Virus record (IMG/VR): IMGVR_UViG_3300042946_000144
Coordinates: 24,332 to 88,331 of that record
Direction: 5' to 3' (one strand)
DNA: 64,000 nucleotides
Source: a virus
Lineage: Duplodnaviria; Heunggongvirae; Uroviricota; Caudoviricetes
Positions within the stretch are counted from its first letter, which is position 1. Each line of letters starts with the position of its first letter. The position numbers and the translations under genes were made by a program. The notes below the pieces were generated by a model. The model did not search any database and had not been told where the DNA came from. It saw nothing but the letters and a program-made list of their open reading frames with translations. This document shows, piece by piece, positions 5,701 to 49,122 of the stretch.

Positions 5701-7337
5701 GTTGTAGCTGTACTAACCATTCTTTTTGTAATAGGATCAAACACCATTCTACTTGTAGATTCAGAAGCTGCTCTAGGTGCTTTAAAGTCCGTTACTCCTG
5801 GTATATTTAAACCAGTTTGAGCCATAGGAATTATAGAACCATCTTCACTGATTGTCTTAGGGTTCCAATCTAGTCCATGTTGGTAGTAGGACATTGAGCC
5901 ACCATTCTCTTGTTTAAGAACATTTTTATCAATCAAGTGTCTAGTCAAATTTCCATAAAACTCATCCATGGAAGTGTCTCTTTCAGTAGTGCTATGATCT
6001 TTTATAAATTTAGCAGTGAGTTTACCTTGATCTACTTTTCTTTTATCACTTGGTGATAGTTCTTCTGTATACCAAACTTGACTAGGATCTTTTACTTGAG
6101 TTATTTGCCAAGCAGGTCCTGTAGTAGTTACCATAGGAGCTTCTTTCTGCAAATGATCATAATAGTAAGAATCATATCCATCGTCTCCTCTATTTACACT
6201 ATACCAATCTTTATAGTCTTGGTTCATGTAATTTAGATAGTTCTTAACATAATTTCCATTCTGTGCACTGGGCATTGTCTTCTTTGCATAAGGACCTTCT
6301 GAAGGAGCAGGACTATTCGTACGTGCGTACATGAATCCTACAGAACCAGGAAGAGATGCTCCGTTCATAGCTGTTAGCACTGACTCAGAACTAATTCCTC
6401 CAGGTACACCATCATACAATTTTCCTTGGTTTAATAAGTTTTCAGAAACATTAGCCTCAGGGCTGGTGTAATTGGAAACTATAGAATCACCATATATTGG
6501 AGTTGCGTTCTGTTCTGGTGAGGTTGTAGGAATTGTGTTTCTGAAAAATCCCCCCATAGCAGTTGTTCTTCCAAACCCTGGTATACTAAGTTTGTTTTGA
6601 AAGTAGTCAAAGTTATTGAAGTCATTTTCAAAACTAGGAGGAATCATATTACCACCAAATAAACCACCAGAATTAGTATTTACATCTTCTGAGTTGTCAT
6701 CTATTTCATTCTTTTTCTTCTCACCTCTTTTTAGCAATCTCTCAGCTCTTCTCTCAGCTCTTCTTTCTTTTCTTTCATCACCTTTTCCCACTCCTAAAAA
6801 ATCACCAATACCACCAATCAATCTACCAACACCACCTTGTTGTCCTGAATAACTAGAGTCACATATATTCTTTGGGCAACTAAATCCTCTTTGAGCTTTT
6901 GTAACTTTTCCACCAATATCAAATTGTCCACCCCATGCTCCGTTGTAATTAAATCCTTGATCGGTTAAACCACCCATTGTTCCCTCTATACCATTCTCAG
7001 CTTTAGGGTTGTATTTATCAAGCCATCCTCCTTTTTTGAAATCTTCAGGTTGCTCAAGATCAGGCTGGAGTCTATAATCACTTGTAAGTTCTTCTCCTTT
7101 CTTAATAGGTTTAATTGCAACCAGGTGTCTTTCATTTCCAACAAGAACGTTTTGAACATTTGGATTGTTACTATGATTGTGATTCCTTCCAAGATCTGTA
7201 AAGTCGTAATCTGTATAAAGTTGATTGATTGTATGAACCTTACCTATAGGATCTCCAGGAGCAAGATTTTTCTTAGAGAAAACCCCTTTGCCTTCAATCT
7301 TACTTTTACCAACTCGATAGTTTTTGTTCTTTGCCAT
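2781..7337 (-). CDS. 1518-aa polyvalent virion protein: N-terminal SET-domain (protein-lysine methyltransferase-like) plus internal HExxH zincin motif
   Basis: The N-terminus carries three SET signatures: GKGVFS (GxG), RNHNHSNNPN (NHSxxPN-like) and EELTSDY (ELxFDY-like). YEHELGHWLEN (HExxH) lies at about 4812..4829. Gly-rich linkers are present. A GG(K)[VL]TKAQ[RNK]G motif repeats three times. Confidence 0.75.
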   Translation of the reverse strand: MAKNKNYRVGKSKIEGKGVFSKKNLAPGDPIGKVHTINQLYTDYDFTDLGRNHNHSNNPNVQNVLVGNERHLVAIKPIKKGEELTSDYRLQPDLEQPEDFKKGGWLDKYNPKAENGIEGTMGGLTDQGFNYNGAWGGQFDIGGKVTKAQRGFSCPKNICDSSYSGQQGGVGRLIGGIGDFLGVGKGDERKERRAERRAERLLKRGEKKKNEIDDNSEDVNTNSGGLFGGNMIPPSFENDFNNFDYFQNKLSIPGFGRTTAMGGFFRNTIPTTSPEQNATPIYGDSIVSNYTSPEANVSENLLNQGKLYDGVPGGISSESVLTAMNGASLPGSVGFMYARTNSPAPSEGPYAKKTMPSAQNGNYVKNYLNYMNQDYKDWYSVNRGDDGYDSYYYDHLQKEAPMVTTTGPAWQITQVKDPSQVWYTEELSPSDKRKVDQGKLTAKFIKDHSTTERDTSMDEFYGNLTRHLIDKNVLKQENGGSMSYYQHGLDWNPKTISEDGSIIPMAQTGLNIPGVTDFKAPRAASESTSRMVFDPITKRMVSTATTGQSKKDVAAATSDMGKYKKFEKEEEKRRVSERKSAVAAKDKGSAFKLPSGETKKYDDMSATEKLYVSGKALEQRGRFNQDEEAWYDDFANPINWITGAAGGLGTAPYEAQQSGSVMPYLSAVASPLIEGAFGFDPLGSAMKIPGLKNQLSKSFEKIVKEPVQAFGLDVGNAAYELYHPIKYAKQIKDIKKYHSGLFDRIKDPEALKRLYNTKYTKKLLSEPTFEEFSENPEKYLNLPEISTFPGARFTKQKTKSSGSHYDPYNNRINIDPSDVNIAKQYGMEMSPEAIYEHELGHWLENMVGNRGGVSSSEARQIFGLSPNNYTPSNLKNYPGYNSLPEYGKSSIEYFAKANGPKLNEAIPHMRETRQTMLEKGYIKNIYDPIDPDLMSRFVKENPKDRISSFANPSSKDQMSGLSNLFNKLPAAAGVGIGAEALMEEDGETPQQRNGGLTKAQNGLEYMDLGPTGSTNKEVRRSCGRTKHDAAMNAEAARELRKLAKEKGPEQLTEWQDITRLDKEDKKALKEQFKLIKDKYPGLDFNMLVAANRDAGRTSVQFSQPERYGQYFNPETGEFLRNTDTRNVDPFMRFYRKQFPKQTKISATDVLDVYNKMPGGVSNYQRYVDEGYFPLDQTPTNQMYGGVTKAQKGLNVPTTTDSLNLFNAQIALNKFYEDEMKKGRIKKDAVKDKFALAKASELNDENLKFYRGETERRNRFNKGMYDDFYYKYFNLLPPQLQLLEERGLKKSQHKNNHQAYYRDLITPMQNLASPFALYDERIKPQSKISYSPVGSGYPGGNVVVYDYDPLAIKPYNMRTPKEKAEWEKKYGSKKTTKSTPVEKKKPEPKVTKKSITPESVLLDNQSQQTSSKITQTPAAVASKVEMSYSPGVPGGDPVYGPGNSLIGVMNKGKFTTYKHDALNSPDKALLENQEALQKYVGQKFGKDYVKFEKGGQYSNTKQTKMVNQKAPQSWLDQYK

Positions 7338-8206
7338 TATTTATAGGAGATTTGACTAGGTGTAACAATGAATTGAGAAACAAGATGAGCATCTGAGCGG
7401 TTATCAAGAATATGTCTCACCTTGAGATCTTTTGCTCTTAGAGGTTCCTTCTTAAAGGATCTCTTGCTGTAGTCCATATTAGATTGGTTTACCACTTTAT
7501 CCACAGATAAATTTTCGCACGAATTTACAAAAAGAGGAACTGATTTGTTTCTTACAAGGGACCAAAATGTATTGTATTGATAGAAGTTATCACTCTTTGT
7601 ATACGTAATCACTTTACTATCAGCGTTATATACAGGATACTTCATGTATTCCTTTAGGTTATGTTTTGGTTTTGGAGCTAGTTCAAGAACTCCTGTAGAC
7701 TGCTGTCCGTTATATAGAACAGCTTTGTTAAACCAAACATCATCCACCTCTATCTTATTAGGTTCTTCTGCAAATACCTGTGTACCATTTATGTATTTAT
7801 ATGTCTTTGTATAGTCTTTTACATTCTGTAAAATCTCATCCATATACTGGTATGCAAATGGATATTCTATTACATACGGTTGTGTAGTTCCGTAGAAGGT
7901 GTTGTATATCTCTGGGTTCCTTAAATGAGACCAGATGCATCCTGTATTTATTTCCTCATAAACAATAGCCGCTATCTGGTTCAAAGGAGTTTCAACAATC
8001 TTCAATCGTTGAACAATATTACAACTATCCTTTGACTTTATTACAACAAGAACAGCATTGTCTGAAACATTTATAGATCTTCCAGATATAAGATTGTCTT
8101 TTGTAATATTGTCTGCTAATACATTTCCAATATTATCCTCAATGACAAATGGTCCAACAGATTTTCTGCTGGACTTTGTCAATTTTATGAGTATTGATTT
8201 AGACAT
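7337..8206 (-). CDS. hypothetical virion protein (289 aa)
   Basis: ORF in the structural operon; ATGA overlap with the downstream gene start. Confidence 0.55.
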   Translation of the reverse strand: MSKSILIKLTKSSRKSVGPFVIEDNIGNVLADNITKDNLISGRSINVSDNAVLVVIKSKDSCNIVQRLKIVETPLNQIAAIVYEEINTGCIWSHLRNPEIYNTFYGTTQPYVIEYPFAYQYMDEILQNVKDYTKTYKYINGTQVFAEEPNKIEVDDVWFNKAVLYNGQQSTGVLELAPKPKHNLKEYMKYPVYNADSKVITYTKSDNFYQYNTFWSLVRNKSVPLFVNSCENLSVDKVVNQSNMDYSKRSFKKEPLRAKDLKVRHILDNRSDAHLVSQFIVTPSQISYK

Positions 8207-8218
8207 TCTTTGTTATAT

Positions 8219-11200
8219 TTAACTTGTACAGAGTAGGATATCAATAATTAGTCCAGATCCATTACACTCATACACGTACGATCCATTTGAATAGAATCCA
8301 CTAACTGATACAGGAACAGTTAATGTTAGGTCTGTATAAATTATACAACCTAGTGACAAAGGAATACATGCTGGGTTTACGTAGTAAGCTATTTGAGATG
8401 CTGTACATGCTATTACATCAGTTGCACCATACCCCAAGAATATTCTTGTTCCGAATATAGTGGTTGATGTTGTTGTGGTTGTATAGTTAGAGCATGTAGA
8501 TATTTCAGTGATCACTCCTCCAACAACATGGAATACAGTTCCTATTAATGTTATGTCGTTAACAAAATACCAACCATCACCTATTGTATCACAATTAGTA
8601 ACTCCAACTCCTCCAAGATATACATTGCTTCCCACAGTTAATTGTGGAATAGACACTACAAATATTTGTGGAGTTGCACCACTTTCAAATACTGCTCCAA
8701 CAGCTGTACATGCATCATTGAAAGTTAAGCTTGATATAATTGATGGTCCTGTTGTAGGAGAATATCCATAAACAAAAGAATATACTTGCAAGTTTGTAGG
8801 TCTTTGACAAGGTGGAGGGATAGGTGGTTCTGTTATGTAAGCAACCCCTTCGATTGTACAGCCAATGATTTCAGCTGTTCCTGCAATTGTACAATTAAGA
8901 ACTGTTGTAGTGGTAGTTGTTGTACCAGGTCTTTCTGTAGAAGTGGTAGTAGTTGTTTCCTCAGGAGGAGTTACGACTGTTGCTAACACTTCAAAAACAG
9001 AATCATCACAGCATGAATTAATTCCAGAATAGAAGAAGTTGTTCTCAGCTATATACCAGTTAGGGATGTAACTGTGGAAACTAATCCAACTTTTTGAGTT
9101 GATTCCATAAGAAAGAGTCCAAGATTTATTACAGAAGTATTCAGGATTTGTAACATCCACTACCTCTCTAATTGTAAATTCACCATTTCCTATAGATCTA
9201 TCTATATAAAACTCTCTATTTACACTATCGTATTTTACATTCTTTTCAGGGAATGGAACATAGTCAAGTTTTGTTATAATCACTCTATCATACTTACTAT
9301 CATAGGTTCCGTGTAAACCTATTCCATTTAGATGATTGTCTATATTTACCTCAGGGAAATGTTTCAGTATTTTAAATGCTAGGTGTTCTACAAAGAATCT
9401 ATTCATACCAGAACCAAAAGCTGAAATGTCAATAGCTTGTGTTCCAGATATAATAAACACTTGTCCACGTTTAGCATCAACTGTAACCTGTCCTTGAGGA
9501 ATTTTCAGGAGCATTTTGTTCTGACTTCCTACATAACCAAGATCTGTTTCTGCAAAGTCAATAGGAGGTGCAGATGAAAACAACTTATTGTTTCCAATAT
9601 AAGCAGCCTGAGGGTTACTTGTATCAATTGTCAATAAGTTATTGTAAAGCAATGTCTTATTCTCAAATCTTGCAAGAATTGCCTTATTTTGAATACCATC
9701 CAAAGAAGTGAGTTTTCCGTAGTTCTGAGGGAAATCAAAATATGAAACAGGACGGTATATTAACCATTCTTCACTATCTGAATAGATTGCTCTGAATGGG
9801 AAATTTGTAAAACAAAGCTTATCTTCCCAATCTACAGGAAGGTGCGTGAATGCATTTTCTTTATTCTGCTTAGAGAACGTAACATTATAATAGTATGTAT
9901 TGTCCTGAGCAATTGTTACATTGTTTTCCTGTAACCAATCATCAGGAATATCTGTACTAACATGTGGCCAGAAGTCACCTTCTTTATTATTGAATGCCTG
10001 ACGAAGATCTGTATTTATAGAAGTTTCACAATAGAATGATGGAATTCCATAAGCAAACAAATAGAAATATCCATCGTAGAACATTCTATTTGGATTGTTA
10101 TTAGTTACTCCCTGTGAATTAGGACAGTCAAAGTTATGTGCCTTATATGAAATAAGATTTGGCATAACAGATGATACATCATTTCCATTGTTATAATTCA
10201 AGATGTAATCCTTTGTAACAGACCTTGCAGAGTGCCAGTATTTAGGATAGGCAACATTACCAATCTCATCATAGAAAATGTCTGAATCATCGGGAGCGTT
10301 TACACGGTTATCTATGAAGAAAGGAATCTTCACCTTAAATGCAAACTTACTAATGAATGTATCTCCTCCAAATACGGTGCTTGGGAGGTTTTGTGTTTTG
10401 GTCAATAGTCTTTGGAAACCTGTATCGATTGTTTCATAAGAATAAATCTGACCCCACTGATTTACAAATATGTTCTTGAGAGAAGCATAATAGGAAAGAA
10501 CATCAATCTTATCCTGTCTTGCAGGAACATCACATGCAGACCTTTCAGATATTGTATATCTAGACTTATCAGAAACAATAGGTATTCCTGTTGGACTGAT
10601 AGAAGGTTGTGTGTATGGATAACCTAAAGGAGGAACTGGAATGTTTGCTGAATAGTATTTTAAATCACTTTCCGTGATTATTGTTGAAACATATGGTAGT
10701 ATATCTAACGGAGTTGTTGTAGAATCAAAAGTTTCACACTTTCCTGCTCTGATTACTATAGATGCTGTTTGTAATGTTGTAGGATCAGTGTATGAAAATA
10801 AAGCAAATGGAGGAAAAAATCCAGAAGGAGATTCCGTATTGCATATCTCATATGTTCTATAAGGAATTGTAAAATCCCTAACATCATCTGTAGTTTTTAT
10901 ATATACAGAAGATTCTCTGTTAAAGTTGTTAATAGGATTGTCATCACCAACAGCTTGAACTCCAGGAATTAGGTATTGAGCAATGTCAATAGGTCTTTGT
11001 TTAATTCCTGCATTATCTTTTATTTCTCCAGAATAGTTATAAGAAGCAATTGAGTTAAATGAGTATGCAAAGTTTCTTCTTGATATTCCATTTAAGTAGA
11101 TTGCTAGATATGCTTGATATGCTGCGAAGAATACAGCAATATTAAAAGGATCTGTTTCCGAGGCTAGTCTATCGGATGAATCTAGAGCATCTCTTTGAGC

Positions 11201-23570: not shown

Positions 23571-24662
23571 TTATGGAATGTACATTATGTAATAGCAACC
23601 AATTCCAGGTTGATAGTTGTTGTGTGGAACATCTCCACCAGATGGAGCATTTGTAACAGCTACAGTTAATGTTGTTGGTTCTGTAAGAGTTCCGCTTTGT
23701 GTTCCAACTGTAGTTGCAGAAATGTGATTACCGCTTGAGTTTGTTCCAGCATATTCCTGAACTGTGTGTGTATGAGGATTTGGAGATACATTAGCTGCAG
23801 CTACGTGCGTGTGAGAAGGCATGTTGTCTGTGCTAAGAGCCACTCTATTTGTTCCAACAATTCCACCATTGTATATGTATGTAGGATTTCCTGTTGTTGC
23901 TGGATTTACAAGAACATTCATTGTTCCTCCAAGCATTGTTCCATCTGTAACACCTACAGCTACAACACCTCTTTTGTCTGGGGTTCCGTTTAAACCATTG
24001 CAAAGATATACCTTTTCCCAATTAGTTCCTGCAATACCTTTTCCTGTACTATCAAAATTATTTAAAGTTCCAGGAGTTGGATAGAATTCCATAGCTACGT
24101 ATGGAACCATCTTTGTGTAATACTTTGTAGAAGTTCCTTGTTCTTGTAGATATTGTCCAATCAATATAGGTAACTCGGTAACTGTTACATAAGTTACACC
24201 AACGTCTTCAACAAACTGACAAAATGCTTCGATTACATTTTGTAAAACTTGGTGCGTTGTTGAGCTTGCTGTTAAACCCTCTAAACAAGAAGGAATTGCG
24301 TAAGGTGAATTTATCTCGTCGAGCTCTGTGTTTATACTTGTGATTGATCCATTTATTGTTGTTATCTGAGCTTGCAAAGAACAAACAGACTTTACAAGAG
24401 CATTCAGAATATCAACTACACTAAGGTTTCCACACGTTGGAAGATTAGATGTTACAAGCTCACATAAATCTAATTGAGTTTTGTCAATTATGATTCCACT
24501 ACCATCTAAAGTGGATGTTAAAAACCCTATCAACGCTTGCTCTACATATGATAGGGAATCTCCAGTTTTAATACCTAGAACAGGAATATCAATACCTGTA
24601 TATCTTACGCATTGGTCAGATGTAATTTGCACACATCCGTTGTAGCAATTTGAGCAGCTCAT
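23571..24662 (-). CDS. tail fiber protein with C-terminal phage-tail-collar (MdpB-like) domain
   Basis: C-terminus NMPSHTHVAAANVSPNPHTHTV...GGDVPHNNYQPGIGCYYIMYIP matches the tail-collar HxH repeats and the N(M/Y)QPY...I ending. N-terminus MSCSNCYNGC. Confidence 0.65.
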   Translation of the reverse strand: MSCSNCYNGCVQITSDQCVRYTGIDIPVLGIKTGDSLSYVEQALIGFLTSTLDGSGIIIDKTQLDLCELVTSNLPTCGNLSVVDILNALVKSVCSLQAQITTINGSITSINTELDEINSPYAIPSCLEGLTASSTTHQVLQNVIEAFCQFVEDVGVTYVTVTELPILIGQYLQEQGTSTKYYTKMVPYVAMEFYPTPGTLNNFDSTGKGIAGTNWEKVYLCNGLNGTPDKRGVVAVGVTDGTMLGGTMNVLVNPATTGNPTYIYNGGIVGTNRVALSTDNMPSHTHVAAANVSPNPHTHTVQEYAGTNSSGNHISATTVGTQSGTLTEPTTLTVAVTNAPSGGDVPHNNYQPGIGCYYIMYIP

Positions 24663-39366: not shown

Positions 39367-39606
39367 TTATGTCCTACCCCACCCAGCACACCCCAAAGTT
39401 ACTGGTGTTTCCAAATACAAACCAAATATTTTTTTCCATAGAAGGAAAAATTATTTTAAAACCCCCACCCAGCCTAGGAAAAATTTTTATATCCCCCCCT
39501 ACCTATTATATGCATAGGAGAAGGGACTACTCCCAGTTCCAACCCCTCCCATAATTTGGGGGATCGTGGGTATCCCCCGTATTGTTAATCACTAAATCTT
39601 AAAACT
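39367..39606. promoter_or_regulatory. divergent control region between the structural (minus) and early (plus) modules
   Basis: Direct repeat CCCCACCCAGC at 39377..39387 and 39463..39473. Poly-C runs. Palindrome TATGCATA at 39509..39516. Hairpins GGGA-CTAC-TCCC and GGGGGAT-CGTGGGT-ATCCCCC at 39557..39577. Confidence 0.5.
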
Positions 39607-43988: not shown

Positions 43989-44203
43989 TCAAAATAACTA
44001 GCCCTAAGTACACGGGATCGAAACCTCAAGCTACTCTTCCTACATTTGAAAAACAGTGTATAGAAGCTTCTAAATCGTTAGTTAGCAGTGTTGGCAACTT
44101 ACACTGGGGAGTTAAAGTTGTGGTTAGCTTAGTAACATCTTAGGTGTGTGATATTGTGAAAATATGGGTTCAATTCCCATCTAGGCTACTAAAACTAAAA
44201 TAT

Positions 44204-44413
44204 ATGACATCAATAGAATGGTTATACACAACAATGTGGGCAACAAATGGAAATATTTCTAATGAACAATTTGAACAAGCCAAAGAAATGCACAAGCAAG
44301 AGATAATAAATGCTTGGTCTGATGGTGCTGGTGGTGGACAATTTACAACTACACCCGATACACCAGAACAATACTATCAAGAAACATTTAAACAACCTAA
44401 AAAAATACAGTAA
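44204..44413 (+). CDS. hypothetical protein (about 70 aa)
   Basis: ORF 44144..44413 with likely internal start MTSIEW. Confidence 0.35.
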   Translation: MTSIEWLYTTMWATNGNISNEQFEQAKEMHKQEIINAWSDGAGGGQFTTTPDTPEQYYQETFKQPKKIQ

Positions 44414-44465: not shown

Positions 44466-44654
44466 ATGGCAACAATGATTGATCCACCATCAGGATGGAA
44501 GTATGGATTTCCTAAACCTATTCCTGAAGATAGAAGACAAGATAGCCTAGTATGGCTTGTAGAACAGGGTTATCCTCAATCTGAAATAGACGCATTAGGA
44601 GAATATTTCTACTGCAGATTCTGGGAAAGACCAGATGATGAGGGGGAGGAATAG
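44466..44654 (+). CDS. small protein with acidic C-terminus (62 aa)
   Basis: ORF. Confidence 0.35.
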   Translation: MATMIDPPSGWKYGFPKPIPEDRRQDSLVWLVEQGYPQSEIDALGEYFYCRFWERPDDEGEE

Positions 44655-44657
44655 AAG

Positions 44658-44790
44658 TATATGCAATTGCATATATGAATGACAAATCATTCACTATTGT
44701 ATGTTTTTGCATATAATGAATGATATGTCATACACATTATTCCAACGAAAAATTGTATCTTAACCACATTATTCAAACGAAAACTTAACT
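44658..44790. repeat. palindrome and direct-repeat cluster in a 250-bp non-coding gap
   Basis: Perfect 18-bp palindrome TATATGCAATTGCATATA at 44658..44675. TGAATGA-CAAA-TCATTCA at 44676..44693. Direct repeats ACACATTATTCCAACGAAAAATT at 44734..44756 and CCACATTATTCAAACGAAAACTT at 44764..44786. Confidence 0.6.
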
Positions 44791-44904
44791 TATGATTGTA
44801 TTTTTTATGGCATTAGCTGCTTTTGTAGCCATATATGGGACAGTTAACATGTTCAGGCAGCTATTTTGTAAAACAAAAAGGTAAAAATCTGTAAAATAGA
44901 CATT

Positions 44905-45216
44905 ATGATTCCATGTATCTGCATCAATGACAAAAACCGTCCTAAGGAGATTCCTGTTAACAAATGGATTAAAGAAGGACAGGAATATCATGTTATATAC
45001 ACTGTTTGGAGCATTCCTTCTAATACATTAGGGCTGCATTTAGATGAAATATGGTTGGATGATTGCTGTTTTCCATATGAATTCTTCAAAGCAGATAGGT
45101 TTGCTTTTACAGAGGAGAATCTTAAGCTCCTTATAGAGCTAATTAAAGACTGTAACGATACAGATTTCTCAATGGATGAGATATTAAAACAAACAACGCT
45201 TGAAGAAGCCTCTTAA
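44905..45216 (+). CDS. hypothetical Cys-containing protein (103 aa)
   Basis: ORF. Confidence 0.4.
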   Translation: MIPCICINDKNRPKEIPVNKWIKEGQEYHVIYTVWSIPSNTLGLHLDEIWLDDCCFPYEFFKADRFAFTEENLKLLIELIKDCNDTDFSMDEILKQTTLEEAS

Positions 45217-45601
45217 AACAAACAAAATGAACTATTACGTATTTCCAGGATTAAAGCGTACAATTGATCCAAGTAGTGGTCCATTGTGCAAGCGAGGGAA
45301 GATTTCCACAGAAGAGGTTATAAAGATTGTTGCTAAAAGCTGTAATGTCACGGTTGATGATATAAGATCAAACATGAGACGTGAAAATATAGTGGAAGCA
45401 AGACATATAACCTGTGGTGTCCTTAGAAACGAGTTTGATTATTCCCTCAAGTTTATAGGAGATGTTATGGGTGGTAAACACCACACCACTATAATACATT
45501 CAATTAGAACCTTCAGAGATAGATATAAGGTTTATAATGATTACAAACAGCTTGTAGATGGTGTAACAAACGAAATAAAGGTGTATATTGCATGCAATTA
45601 A
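45200..45601 (+). CDS. DnaA domain-IV-like HTH DNA-binding protein
   Basis: RRENIVEARHITCGVLRNEFDYSLKFIGDVMGGKHHTTIIHSIRTFRDR resembles the DnaA C-terminal HTH (..AR..AMYL...T..SL..IG..FGGRDHTTV.HA..KI). Confidence 0.55.
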   Translation: MKKPLKTNKMNYYVFPGLKRTIDPSSGPLCKRGKISTEEVIKIVAKSCNVTVDDIRSNMRRENIVEARHITCGVLRNEFDYSLKFIGDVMGGKHHTTIIHSIRTFRDRYKVYNDYKQLVDGVTNEIKVYIACN

Positions 45602-45613
45602 AACTTATAAAAC

Positions 45614-46951
45614 ATGAAAAAAGCAATTGTGATTATTGGGATGCTATTGTCCCAATTAAGCTATGGTAGAAAGATTTATGTATCCTCTTCTACAGGAAAT
45701 GATACAAGAACTATTACACAAGCTCAAAGCTCATCTACACCATGGGCTAGTCTTAGTAAGGTGCAGAGCTCTATGTCCTCCATAGTTAGTGGAGACAGTG
45801 TGTTGTTTAAAAGTGGAGATAGATTCAATGGGACATTGGTTGTATCTTCTAAGACAAATGTCTATTTTGGCTCTTATGGAACAGGTGCAAAACCTTTGTT
45901 CTGGGGAACAGGAGCTACAATATCATCATTAGTCATCCTTAGAACATCTAAGAACATTGTAATTGATAACTGGGATATATCTGATACAACCATCTCATTT
46001 ACAGACAGATATGTAATGGCTAAGATTAAGATAGCCTTTATGATGGATCAAAGTTCTACAGGAAACACTGTTAAAAACTGTAGAATGGATAGAATTGGAT
46101 ATGGGTTCTATCTTACATCATCCTCAAGAGGTAACAATATTACAGGCTGTGATATTGGTAATCTTAGAATGATTAAGAACACACCAAAAGAAATAAACCC
46201 TGATGATGACTATGGTGGTGTACCAGTACAAATCTCTAGTTCTGGAAATACATTCACAAACAACTATCTACATGACTGTTGGGCTATGTCCTATGATTAT
46301 GGTAGAGATGGTGGCGGTATAGAATTCTTTGAAGAAGGAGCTGTTATAGAGAATAATTTTATTGCTTATAACACGTTCTATGATAACAATGGTACACTTG
46401 AGCACGGTTCTAACGCTGATGGTATAGCTAACAATGACATCCGTAACAACACATTTGCTTTTAACAAGGTGATTAACTGTGGTAGTAGTGTTTATATTAA
46501 TAACGGTGGACAGTATAAGACAAGAGTGAGAAACCTGATGATCTATAATAATGTGTTTGTAGAAACAAGAGCTAAAACATCTACAGCTGTATTTGGTCAA
46601 AAAGCAGCTGACACTATTCCTAATGTTATCACAATAAAAAATAACATCTTCAAACTTACCAACGGTCTTCAAGTGGCTAGAACAAGCTTAACCACTCCTG
46701 CTAATCAGTTTGTACATACAAACAATCTCTATCAACTATCTGGTGGTAGTATAACTAACTTTCCATTAGACAGATCAGAAATCAATTCTACATCAACTAT
46801 CTGGATGAACACAGCTAATAGTAATCCTCTTCTTTGGGATTATCATTTAGCACCAGGAAGTCCAGCTGCTAGTACAGGAACTGATGTGGGCTTATCTAAA
46901 AACTTTGAAAACAATCCTGTTGTATTCCCATACAACATGGGCATTTATTAA
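45614..46951 (+). CDS. secreted right-handed beta-helix (pectate-lyase-fold) protein
   Basis: Signal peptide MKKAIVIIGMLLSQLSYG. Repeated N/G/T-rich beta-helix rungs (NNDIRNNTFAFN, NNGGQYKT, IKNNIF). Confidence 0.55.
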   Translation: MKKAIVIIGMLLSQLSYGRKIYVSSSTGNDTRTITQAQSSSTPWASLSKVQSSMSSIVSGDSVLFKSGDRFNGTLVVSSKTNVYFGSYGTGAKPLFWGTGATISSLVILRTSKNIVIDNWDISDTTISFTDRYVMAKIKIAFMMDQSSTGNTVKNCRMDRIGYGFYLTSSSRGNNITGCDIGNLRMIKNTPKEINPDDDYGGVPVQISSSGNTFTNNYLHDCWAMSYDYGRDGGGIEFFEEGAVIENNFIAYNTFYDNNGTLEHGSNADGIANNDIRNNTFAFNKVINCGSSVYINNGGQYKTRVRNLMIYNNVFVETRAKTSTAVFGQKAADTIPNVITIKNNIFKLTNGLQVARTSLTTPANQFVHTNNLYQLSGGSITNFPLDRSEINSTSTIWMNTANSNPLLWDYHLAPGSPAASTGTDVGLSKNFENNPVVFPYNMGIY

Positions 46952-46976: not shown

Positions 46977-47186
46977 ATGATTGGCGTTCTCAAAAAAAGA
47001 GGTGAAGAATGGTTTGTAGCAACTGTTCTTTACAATTCAGCTTGGTCAAACTACTATCCTACACACCCTGACCACAATTTATGGTTGAAGATTTGGGGAA
47101 AGGATGGCCAAAAGGTTTTATTTGAGATTGTAAACAAAACACACGTTAAACTAAAAGAATTATGCAATGAAGGTTGTGATGTATGA
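46977..47186 (+). CDS. hypothetical protein (about 69 aa)
   Basis: ORF 46884..47186; likely internal start MIGVLKK after the upstream stop. Confidence 0.3.
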   Translation: MIGVLKKRGEEWFVATVLYNSAWSNYYPTHPDHNLWLKIWGKDGQKVLFEIVNKTHVKLKELCNEGCDV

Positions 47187-49122
47187 CATAGAGACCCTTA
47201 AGGAATATTTCTTAGTGGTCGCATTAGTTCCTCAGGAACCATATAGAGTTTTTAAGGTTAATAAAGACCAGAACAGCTTAGATGCTTTCATCAATTTTAC
47301 AAAGGAATATCAAGATTACTATTGGGTGGGGTATAACAACCTAAGGTTTGACTCTCAGGTGATTGAGTGGATTATTAGGAACAATGAGAATTGGCATGAG
47401 CTTTCAAGCTTAGATATTACATCTAGAATACATCAGAAAGCACAAGATGTGATACATGATGCTAATTATGATGTATTTCCTGAATACAGAGAATCAGATC
47501 TTTCCTTGAAACAGCTCGATCTATTTAAAATACACCACTATGACAATAAGAACAGACGAGTGAGTTTAAAAAGACTTGAGTTTGAAATGGATCTTGAGAA
47601 CATTGAAGAGATGCCCATAGATCATAACAAAACAGGTATGACTGATGAAGAAATAATCCTCACTACAGAATACTGTTTGAACGATGTTTGGGCTACTTAT
47701 CAGTTCTATCTTGTAACAATTGGTGAAACAGAACATCCTTTATATAAAGGAAACAACCAGATTGAGCTCAGAATGGATATACAGGAAGAATTTGGTATTC
47801 CCTGTTTAAACTATTCAGATAGTAAGATTGGTGATGAGATGATTAAGAAGTATTATTGTATAGAAAAGGGAATAGACTACAAAGAACTTCCCAAGAAAGG
47901 ATTCTTCAGGAAGGATATTAAGATTAAACACTGTATAGCACACTATGTTGAATTCGAAACACCTGAACTAAAGAAGTTCCTTTCTGATATAAGTAAGAAA
48001 ACACTCACAATGAGTGATGATTTTAAAGAAGATTTACATTTTTATGACAACATTTATGCATTCGCAAAGGGTGGGCTACATACAGAAAATGGTCCAAAGG
48101 TGTTTGAGGCTGATGATGAACACTTCATTATTGATTGGGACGTTAGCTCATACTATCCTGCTATCATCATTAATAACGGTAAGTATCCCTATCATTTGGG
48201 TAAGGAATTCCTTGCTGGATATAAGAAGATGTTTGAGAAAAGGCTAGAACTGAAACCCTTAGCTAAGAAAGACAAGAAGATCAAAGGTATTGTTGGTGCT
48301 CTAAAGCTTGCTGTAAACTCTGTTTATGGTAAATCTTCTGACATGCAATCCTGGATTTATGACAGACAACTTACAATGTTCACCACTATAACAGGAGAAC
48401 TTTCTCTGTTAATGCTCATTGAGAAATATGAACTTGCTGGTATAAAAGTTATTTCTGCTAATACAGATGGTGTCACTATTCGCATTCATAAAGACAAACT
48501 CGAAAAGATGTTTGAGATTAATAAATGGTGGTGCAAAGCGACACAATATGAGCTAGAACGTGCTGATTATCAGAAGATTATATTCTCAACGGTGAACGAT
48601 TATTTAGCAATTAAAACTGATGGAGATGTTAAAAAGAAAGGTGATTTCCTCACAGACTTTGAATTACATAAAAACAAGTCTGCGTGTATTGTTCCTATTG
48701 CCCTTGAGCATTATTTTGTTAGCGGTGTTCCTATTGTGGACACTATTAGAACTCACTCTAATATTTTTGATTTCTGTCTTAGACAAAAGTCTTCCAGGGA
48801 CTTTCACTATGAAGGAATCAATAGAAGAACTGGAGAAACCACAGTATACCACAAACTTATCAGATACTACATATCTCAACAAGGAGAAAAACTCCTGAAA
48901 GTGAAGAATGAAGATTCTGACAGTGGTGCAGCTAATGTTTCTCAAGTGGAAGCAGGTGAATGGCTAGCAACAGTGTGTAATCATCTTACCAAGGATCATC
49001 CAATGGACAACATCAACTATGAATATTACATAGAGAGAGCAAATAAGATAGTCCACAAGATTGAAACAGAAGGTAAGAAGAGAAAAGTTATTGTTAACCC
49101 AAATCAAATGTCACTATTCTAA
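47167..49122 (+). CDS. polB: family B DNA polymerase with 3'-5' exonuclease (compact, 651 aa)
   Basis: Exo I YDIET, Exo II YNNLRFD, Exo III YCLNDVWATY. Motif A DWDVSSYYPAII, motif B KLAVNSVYGK, motif C ISANTDGV. Confidence 0.8.
   Translation: MKVVMYDIETLKEYFLVVALVPQEPYRVFKVNKDQNSLDAFINFTKEYQDYYWVGYNNLRFDSQVIEWIIRNNENWHELSSLDITSRIHQKAQDVIHDANYDVFPEYRESDLSLKQLDLFKIHHYDNKNRRVSLKRLEFEMDLENIEEMPIDHNKTGMTDEEIILTTEYCLNDVWATYQFYLVTIGETEHPLYKGNNQIELRMDIQEEFGIPCLNYSDSKIGDEMIKKYYCIEKGIDYKELPKKGFFRKDIKIKHCIAHYVEFETPELKKFLSDISKKTLTMSDDFKEDLHFYDNIYAFAKGGLHTENGPKVFEADDEHFIIDWDVSSYYPAIIINNGKYPYHLGKEFLAGYKKMFEKRLELKPLAKKDKKIKGIVGALKLAVNSVYGKSSDMQSWIYDRQLTMFTTITGELSLLMLIEKYELAGIKVISANTDGVTIRIHKDKLEKMFEINKWWCKATQYELERADYQKIIFSTVNDYLAIKTDGDVKKKGDFLTDFELHKNKSACIVPIALEHYFVSGVPIVDTIRTHSNIFDFCLRQKSSRDFHYEGINRRTGETTVYHKLIRYYISQQGEKLLKVKNEDSDSGAANVSQVEAGEWLATVCNHLTKDHPMDNINYEYYIERANKIVHKIETEGKKRKVIVNPNQMSLF

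Follow-up and report, generated by a model that had tools for sequence, protein, structure and literature searches.

A pair of palindromic boxes with the sequence of bacterial hipBA operators was identified in an intergenic island of a 64,000-nucleotide stretch of viral DNA (positions 24,332 to 88,331 of IMG/VR record IMGVR_UViG_3300042946_000144; hereafter the window), which is part of a crAss-like phage. The two boxes, A1 and A2, lie on either side of a predicted promoter, ahead of genes for a hydrophobic peptide (tm30), a conserved phage protein (g103), and a stand-alone DnaA domain-IV protein (DnaA-IV). We read them as an orphan hipBA-type operator pair that brackets a promoter repressed by a HipB-family protein and stands at the head of a swappable cassette, and we give this reading a probability of about 0.6. 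In keeping with it, the 137 bp of non-coding DNA that holds the boxes is probably the promoter-operator region of the cassette tm30, g103, and DnaA-IV. A hipBA operator pair without toxin-antitoxin (TA) genes is carried by a crAss-like phage as well as dozens of other uncultured phages.

Phage Boxes with the Sequence and Phasing of hipBA Operators

Both A1 and A2 match the HipB box, TGAATGA/TCAT(T/A)CA with four free bases in the centre, at 14 of 14 specified positions. They are the sole exact sites for the box in the 64 kb, where about 0.005 would be expected by chance (an estimate from base composition), and their starts (44676 and 44717) are 41 bp apart, which is also the phasing of the bacterial pairs. 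The best score of A1, 26.9 bits, was obtained with operator O3 of the bacterial hipBA promoters. The initial annotation of this DNA had described a palindrome of the form TGAATGA-N4-TCATTCA directly after an 18-bp palindrome, which is indeed present at 44676-44693 with CAAA as its centre, and had missed that this second palindrome is repeated as A2 41 bp later.

Besides the window, only two lineages, L037 and L360, yielded homologues of the island. A1 is identical in L360, while the half-site bases of A2 are identical in L037 at 14 of 14 positions, with two of its four spacer bases differing. Of the 28 half-site bases, 25 agree between the window and L037, compared with 17 of the 31 remaining bases of that stretch (Fisher p = 0.0036). 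Across all loci, the half-sites are fixed and the 4-nt centre is freely variable, which speaks for a DNA site contacted by protein and against an RNA hairpin. Judged from these comparisons, the boxes are under selection in phages.

Boxes of other common regulators were also considered. According to a previous study, the LexA motifs of Bacteroidetes are GGA-N5-TCC and CTAA-N5-TTAG (PMC8565304). Neither motif occurs in A1, A2, or the adjacent 18-bp palindrome (P1), so the A boxes are not an SOS box. More generally, the boxes of LexA (checked against PMC8565304) and those of Fur, ArgR, FNR/CRP, NrdR, and Rex were rejected for misfits of geometry or sequence.

A Bacteroidota hipBA Family with Four Putative Operators

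Bacterial genomes, one per species, were scanned with the pattern TGAATGA-N4-TCAT-N18-34-TGAATGA-N4-TCAT. The box pair was found in at least 120 bacterial contigs, compared with about 1-10 by chance (estimated from the 22 specified bases), and among the matches listed, most come from Bacteroidota or allied phyla, including Algoriphagus, Pedobacter, Paludibacter, Saprospiraceae, Flavobacteriaceae, Fluviicola, Chitinophaga, Balneolaceae, and Ignavibacteriales. In the 140 loci analysed (120 bacterial and 20 viral), the start-to-start spacing is exactly 41 bp in 98 of 170 matches. In matches outside these phyla, the spacing usually differs, as does the centre (…AACGTT…), and they probably serve another regulator. 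Loci L240, L280, and L328, among others from genomes outside Bacteroidota, contain palindrome pairs of the TGAATGAACGTTCATTCA type spaced by 43-49 bp, which are probably operators of a different regulator family.

The gene adjacent to the boxes encodes an XRE protein of about 110 amino acids in 59 of the 86 listed bacterial loci with 40-42 bp spacing. This protein matches HTH_3 (1.8e-11), with weak matches to HipB and to the Y4mF antitoxin, and it is followed, in most loci with enough sequence, by a protein of about 433 amino acids that matches HipA_C (1.2e-53) and Couple_hipA (3e-15). An XRE gene followed by a HipA_C/Couple_hipA gene identifies these loci as hipBA type II TA operons.

Alignment of 44 promoters from the listed loci revealed four boxes in the arrangement O1-41-O2-~50-O3-41-O4. 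In O3, the left half is fused to the -7 promoter box of Bacteroidota (TAtaTTTGaATGA…). O4 overlies the start codon of hipB, where ATGAATGAtattTCATAC encodes the conserved N-terminus M-N-D-I-S-Y; the bacterial HipB-like proteins accordingly begin with M[NT]D[ILK]SY, encoded by O4. Such a four-box array on the promoter and start of hipB is the layout predicted by antitoxin autoregulation, as in E. coli hipBA, and from this promoter architecture we read the box as the putative site at which HipB proteins of this family bind. Its identity as an operator and its association with hipBA are well supported. The operator and the four-box promoter architecture of a large Bacteroidota hipBA family are thereby defined through comparative genomics alone. 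Our literature search found no prior description of this operator or of the four-box hipBA architecture in Bacteroidota, and we know of no earlier account of it.

The promoter of E. coli hipBA carries four HipB operators of the form TATCC-N8-GGATA. Like O1-O4 of the Bacteroidota family, it represents autoregulation by an XRE antitoxin through phased palindromic operators that overlap the promoter, of which the phage island has two. Autoregulation of the E. coli operon by its antitoxin is summarised in PMC8262856. The Bacteroidota and phage boxes differ from those of E. coli in their sequence, TGAATGA-N4-TCATWCA, and in their 41-bp phasing, and in the phage unrelated genes follow.

Orphan Pairs in the Window and in Other Viral Contigs

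In the window, A2 preserves the ATG and the MNDMSY codons of bacterial O4, which indicates that the element derives from a hipBA promoter. What follows the boxes is only a 15-codon hipB stub, not a hipB (HTH_3)-hipA (HipA_C) pair; the stub, whose first six codons are the operator, is unlikely to be a gene. Nor does the window have all four operators of the bacterial array with the TAnnTTTG box fused to O3, as two boxes only are present, and the 8-mer fused to A1, CATATATG, agrees with TAnnTTTG at four of its six specified bases.

The box pair is carried by 33 viral contigs. In the 30 places examined there, A2 is followed only by a stub of 5-58 codons and no hipB gene, and a weakly HipB-like helix-turn-helix (HTH) protein is encoded nearby in only a few contigs. 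A gene for a 180-amino-acid XRE HTH protein, weakly HipB-like (E ~6e-6), adjoins the box pair without hipA in L106 (546-1140), L153, and L352, which shows that a mobile element can bring its own member of this regulator family. In the lineage of L138 and L146, both A boxes are present 40 bp apart, upstream of tRNA genes and with an unrelated spacer; PolB is 72% identical in L138. Two HipB-type boxes were also observed in L148 (297-405) and L209 (6999-7107), where they are 91 bp apart, equal to the O2-to-O4 distance, and lie between the tRNA-Glu and tRNA-Val genes of a phage array of tRNA and transfer-messenger RNA (tmRNA) genes.

Predicted Promoter and Proposed Regulation

The predicted sigma70-like promoter between the boxes matches the consensus at 10 of 12 positions, its hexamers being separated by a spacer within the usual 16-18 nt. 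Its -35 hexamer begins inside A1 and its -10 hexamer ends on the first base of A2. The promoter stretch is identical in L360, and TTTTGC of this region is kept in L037. In addition, a sequence close to the -7 box of Bacteroidota (TGTTTTTG, 44702-44709) lies within the spacer. A canonical AAACTTGACA -35 element lies 17 nt upstream of A1 in L360, and AAACTTGACA is found at the equivalent position after g62, the open reading frame (ORF) that flanks the island on its 5' side, in L001, L002, and L013, while it has decayed to TAGAAG in the window. Whichever of the two promoters is used, occupancy of A1 or A2 would mask the -35 element, the -10 element, or the start site. As window-wide promoter signals, the TAnnTTTG -7 box and the clade motif ACTTGACA were rejected, neither being enriched.

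The sequence and the 41-bp phasing that the phage boxes share with the Bacteroidota hipBA operators point to a HipB-family repressor as the cognate regulator. According to the proposed mechanism, dimers of a HipB-family XRE repressor would sit on one face of the helix, at both A1 and A2. This protein might be supplied by a hipBA module of the host or by a phage homologue encoded outside the window. Since A1 extends over the -35 hexamer and A2 reaches from the last base of the -10 hexamer across the predicted start (about 44722-44726), occupied boxes would shut the promoter, and the cassette would be transcribed when the repressor is scarce, e.g., when a labile antitoxin decays after host shut-off.

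As for the purpose of such an arrangement, we only tentatively suggest that lytic Bacteroidota phages, this crAss-like one among them, keep orphan hipBA operators to sense the TA state of the host or to soak up HipB-HipA. If the state is sensed, loss of the labile HipB antitoxin would be the very moment at which the phage turns on accessory or counter-defence genes. To our knowledge, cross-talk of this form between a phage and a TA system at the level of DNA has not been described. Control of phage genes by a host antitoxin would, if true, provide a directly testable link between TA state and phage gene timing, in a phylum whose phage regulation is poorly known.

Several known systems resemble parts of this arrangement. 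Phage and moron genes controlled by LexA or Fur boxes have a phage promoter under the operator of a host regulator, so that their expression tracks host physiology; the same principle would apply here, whereas the regulator would be a TA antitoxin, not a global regulator. The lytic phage PhiTE reportedly carries pseudo-ToxI repeats against ToxIN, which mimic the RNA antitoxin and neutralise the toxin directly. Like PhiTE, the phage studied here would be a lytic phage with a regulatory or antitoxin fragment of a host TA locus and without the toxin, while the window differs in having only operator DNA and a 15-codon stub. In a related lineage, the middle promoters of the crAss-like phage phi14:2 are sigma70-like and are read by the host RNA polymerase (bioRxiv 10.1101/2020.03.07.982082). 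They share sigma70-like -35/-10 blocks with the promoter predicted in the window, but were described as a tripartite motif without palindromic operators.

A number of observations weigh against the operator reading. No HipB-like HTH protein (E <= 0.01) and no hipA is encoded in the 64-kb window, and HipB binding is read from promoter architecture even in the bacteria. L360 has lost the right half of A2, hence an intact pair can be dispensed with, and in L037, 3 of the 14 bases of A1 are degraded. The region shows no enrichment of sigma70 consensus matches (33 found versus 38.7 expected), and the promoter counterpart in L037 is weak. Furthermore, no common downstream gene lies behind the pairs of the viral contigs, so that no shared purpose can be read from their context.

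Alternative Explanations

The boxes could be captured DNA, i.e., a fragment of a host hipBA promoter, first hipB codons included, that was acquired by recombination and now, with no repressor acting on it, drives constitutive transcription of the cassette or is neutral filler ahead of it. In favour of this are the truncated hipB remnant, which suggests capture from a host locus, the losses in L360 and L037, and the lack of a cognate repressor gene in the window. We nevertheless regard this as unlikely, because conservation is significantly higher in the half-sites than in the bases around them, intact pairs with 40-41 bp spacing persist without hipB in the 33 viral contigs, and pairs are kept in three lineages of the phage clade whose spacers have diverged. 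Still more doubtful is a decoy, in which the boxes would bind host HipB-HipA on replicating phage DNA and either hold the HipA kinase in its inactive, operator-bound form or titrate HipB, blunting abortive infection by hipBA. E. coli HipA is held inactive within higher-order complexes of HipA, HipB, and operator DNA, and orphan operator pairs ahead of unrelated genes in many phages would suit a decoy; on the other hand, there is a single pair per 64 kb, nothing pointed to a role of this HipA family in defence against phages (PADLOC gave a weak match to a candidate family only), and a position around a promoter is more simply explained by regulation.

The initial annotation had proposed, besides an operator or a middle promoter, an iteron-type replication origin upstream of the DnaA-like/PolB block, with the DnaA domain-IV protein as a possible binding partner. 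In such an origin, the repeats and palindromes would be iterons or DnaA-box-like sites for this protein or for host DnaA. As in oriC and iteron origins, an AT-rich stretch with repeats lies beside a DnaA-related gene, and strong hairpins of single-stranded DNA are possible (z = -3.5). Three 9-mers with at most one mismatch from TTATNCACA (TCATACACA, TTAACCACA, and TTATTCAAA) fall within 50 bp, versus 0.2 expected; two of them derive from one duplicated unit. This suggestive cluster scores highest among 140-bp segments for such 9-mers, level at three with one further site on a count of both strands. When DnaA-IV is aligned to 1J1V, R399, H434, T435, and H439 are kept while P423 is replaced by K and D433 by H; that is, four of what we take to be the six base-contacting residues of E. 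coli DnaA are retained, and the stand-alone protein could, on this alignment, bind DnaA boxes of the host. An origin is nonetheless very improbable, as the segment is absent from the close relatives L001 and L002, in which the flanking genes are about 90% identical. The island contains no exact DnaA box, DnaA boxes are not enriched in the window, the island of L037 has one near-box, and other DnaA-IV loci lack box clusters. Moreover, there are only two direct repeats, not three or more phased ones with a complete initiator; a protein made of domain IV only has no AAA+ module with which to unwind DNA; and L360 keeps the repeats with no DnaA-IV gene in the 20 kb of it examined. The GC-skew analysis that had been recommended placed the cumulative minimum at about 39.4 kb, where gene orientation switches, and not at the island. 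Unlike oriC and iteron origins, the island thus has no consensus boxes, two repeats, and no complete initiator, and is dispensable in relatives. A tempting assignment that the evidence does not support is thereby removed, and in place of the DnaA domain-IV protein we read a HipB-type XRE antitoxin or repressor as the regulator of the operator.

Least probable of all is an RNA-level element, in which P1 and the A boxes would form hairpins in a transcript reading through from g62 and act as a terminator, attenuator, or RNase processing site. Folding of the strand does yield one hairpin at P1 and a long one between A1 and A2 (-30.4 kcal/mol, z = -3.5), and A boxes adjoin tRNA genes in L148, L209, and L138. 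However, the stems are AT-rich and have no adjacent U-tract, whereas the evident terminators of this phage are GC-rich hairpins with T-runs; no terminator-like site, defined by a GC-rich hairpin and a U-tract, was called in 44655-44800. Over more than 100 loci, the stem is fixed and the 4-nt centre is free, a pattern typical of a DNA palindrome touched by protein and not of a structure kept up through compensatory changes.

The Exchangeable Cassette and Its Genes

Cassette boundaries are evident from the close relatives L001 and L002, which encode g62 and g445, the genes on either side, at about 85-93% amino acid identity to the window and share nothing with it between them. The slot, at 3854-4604 in L001 and 4654-6000 in L002, is occupied there by a small Zn-ribbon ORF and a tmRNA (Rfam RF00023, 88.7 bits; 4074-4585 in L001), and in L002 also by an HNH/EndoVII-like ORF. 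This slot is a hot spot for cargo. Because 44655-45613 is replaced in close relatives, the segment counts as accessory cargo and is unlikely to contain an essential origin; the island sits exactly on the 5' boundary of the exchanged segment. The gene order in L037 is g62, a 65-amino-acid ORF, the island, g103, an OmpR-type winged-helix gene, DnaA-IV, g445, and PolB, while L360, a 109.7-kb contig, has a g445-like gene, g62, the island, tm30, g103, and then PolB directly. Coordinates in the window are listed in Table 1.

Table 1. Features of the island, the cassette, and the flanking genes in the window.
Feature	Position	Strand	Description
g62	44466-44654		62-amino-acid ORF, flanks the island on its 5' side
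Cassette	44655-45613	+	tm30, g103, and DnaA-IV; replaced in close relatives
P1	44658-44675	.	TATATGCAATTGCATATA, 18-bp perfect palindrome
A1	44676-44693	.	TGAATGA-CAAA-TCATTCA, perfect 7-4-7 palindrome, HipB-type box; overlaps the -35 hexamer
Predicted sigma70-like promoter	44690-44717	+	-35 TTCACT (44690-44695), 16-nt spacer, -10 TATAAT (44712-44717)
hipB 5'-end remnant	44716-44763	+	ATG and 15 codons (MNDMSYTLFQRKIVS), then stop; first six codons are the operator
A2	44717-44734	.	TGAATGA-TATG-TCATACA, HipB-type box; 41 bp after A1; covers the predicted transcription start
B1 and B2	44719-44750, 44751-44782	+	Tandem 32-nt repeats, 78% identical, cores CACATTATTCMAACGAAAA
tm30	44792-44884	+	30-amino-acid hydrophobic peptide MIVFFMALAAFVAIYGTVNMFRQLFCKTKR; first cassette gene
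g103	44905-45216	+	103-amino-acid conserved phage protein; predicted SH3-like barrel and helices
DnaA domain-IV protein (DnaA-IV)	45227-45601	+	Stand-alone HTH protein; Bac_DnaA_C 2.9e-19; last cassette gene
g445	45614-46951		445-amino-acid secreted-looking protein
PolB	47167-49122		Downstream of g445

The island had been annotated as 250 bp of non-coding DNA. This holds for 44655-44791 (137 bp) and for a 20-bp gap, while 44792-44884 codes for the tm30 peptide, homologues of which are present in L005 and L006 (MEIIICLVMAITIVVTILGVISMVYQLFFKKNSV) and in L360 (MIVFIVFTAIVAVYGTVDMFRQLFCNKK). In L005 and L006, the tm30 homologue adjoins another DnaA-IV gene. The 23-bp tandem repeats reported for the island are present as well, as the cores of a 32-nt tandem duplication, B1 and B2; the two copies of CACATTATTCMAACGAAAA (44733-44751 and 44765-44783) compare with 0.06 expected. 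B1 and B2 also contain the DnaA-box-like 9-mers of the island. B1 and B2 are conserved in the window, L037, and L360, with the end of B2 9-10 nt before the first start codon in each. They were found nowhere else in 2.7 Mb of fetched loci, and a search of viral contigs with the B repeat gave no match. Folding of the B leader as RNA gave no structure signal (z = -0.09), and an Rfam scan of the island found no RNA family; the safest description of B1 and B2 is a conserved leader.

Homologues of g103 number 141 in freshwater phage contigs, and its 87 loci occupy shuffled positions within a freshwater phage clade. No Pfam, PHROG, or PADLOC match indicated its function. Its structure model is confident (predicted local distance difference test, 85) and consists of an SH3-like barrel and two helices, with no significant match in the PDB. 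An OmpR-type winged-helix gene was observed just upstream of DnaA-IV in L037 (772-1167 and 1183-1554) and in L009 (84-479).

The 18-bp Palindrome

The 18-bp palindrome highlighted in the initial annotation, P1, is present as described and is the only perfect palindrome of this length in the window. Such a palindrome occurred in 39 of 100 first-order Markov simulations of 64 kb (mean 0.5 per sequence), so P1 is not beyond chance; the proposed operator or promoter is supported, with the second palindrome and not the 18-bp one as the operator. The counterpart of P1 is imperfect in L360 (TATATGTAAATGCATATA) and absent from L037. The right half of P1, TTGCATATA, precedes each A box (repeat D3; second copy at 44707-44715), and two copies of the repeated unit TTGCATATA(A)-TGAATGA-N4-TCATWCAC stand 40-41 bp apart. 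P1 probably belongs to the promoter spacer.

The half-site TATATGCA had been noted in the divergent control region, where it does occur at 39507-39514, and a genome-wide search for it had been recommended. Run on the window, this search gave seven copies versus 3.4 expected, three in the island and four outside, the one at 39507 included; the copies outside are at chance level and do not support the suggested link to the divergent control region. In viral contigs, the exact 18-mer of P1 had two unrelated matches, the first inside a coding sequence, the second in a foreign repeat cluster. The latter belongs to an unrelated viral contig (L003, IMGVR_UViG_3300028615_000023), in which the 18-mer lies within a cluster of TTGCATATGCAAT-like repeats (9081-9270); this cluster sits in a long non-coding stretch adjoining primase and DnaB genes and may be an origin in that phage.

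Genomic Setting

The large terminase shares 39.6% identity with its counterpart in Leptolyngbya phage Lbo-JY46 and about 32% with the Cellulophaga phage enzymes; there are further matches in Bacteroides, Flavobacterium, and crAss-type phages. At the DNA level, no similarity to cultured phages was found for the 4-kb region or for the island. The structural block occupies the minus strand up to about 39.4 kb, beyond which small genes and the replication block lie on the plus strand. The hipBA-type operator pair supports a Bacteroidota host for this uncultured phage. In the close relative L360, a 789-amino-acid protein (7107-9476) has a faint match to Por_Secre_tail, a type IX secretion domain, which also fits a Bacteroidota host.

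Upstream of the island, a weak tRNA-like match was seen at 44126-44188 (Rfam 30.9 bits versus a gathering score of 29), which overlaps the 5' end of an ORF at 44144-44413 and was not called by ARAGORN. On the minus strand, five copies of ATTTGACA are located between 39017 and 42106, within 3 kb of the plus-strand early-gene region, and these might be antisense promoters or sites of a regulator. Finally, the divergent control region (39367-39606) contains two copies of CCCCACCCAGC as well as C/G-rich hairpins, and coincides with the cumulative GC-skew minimum.

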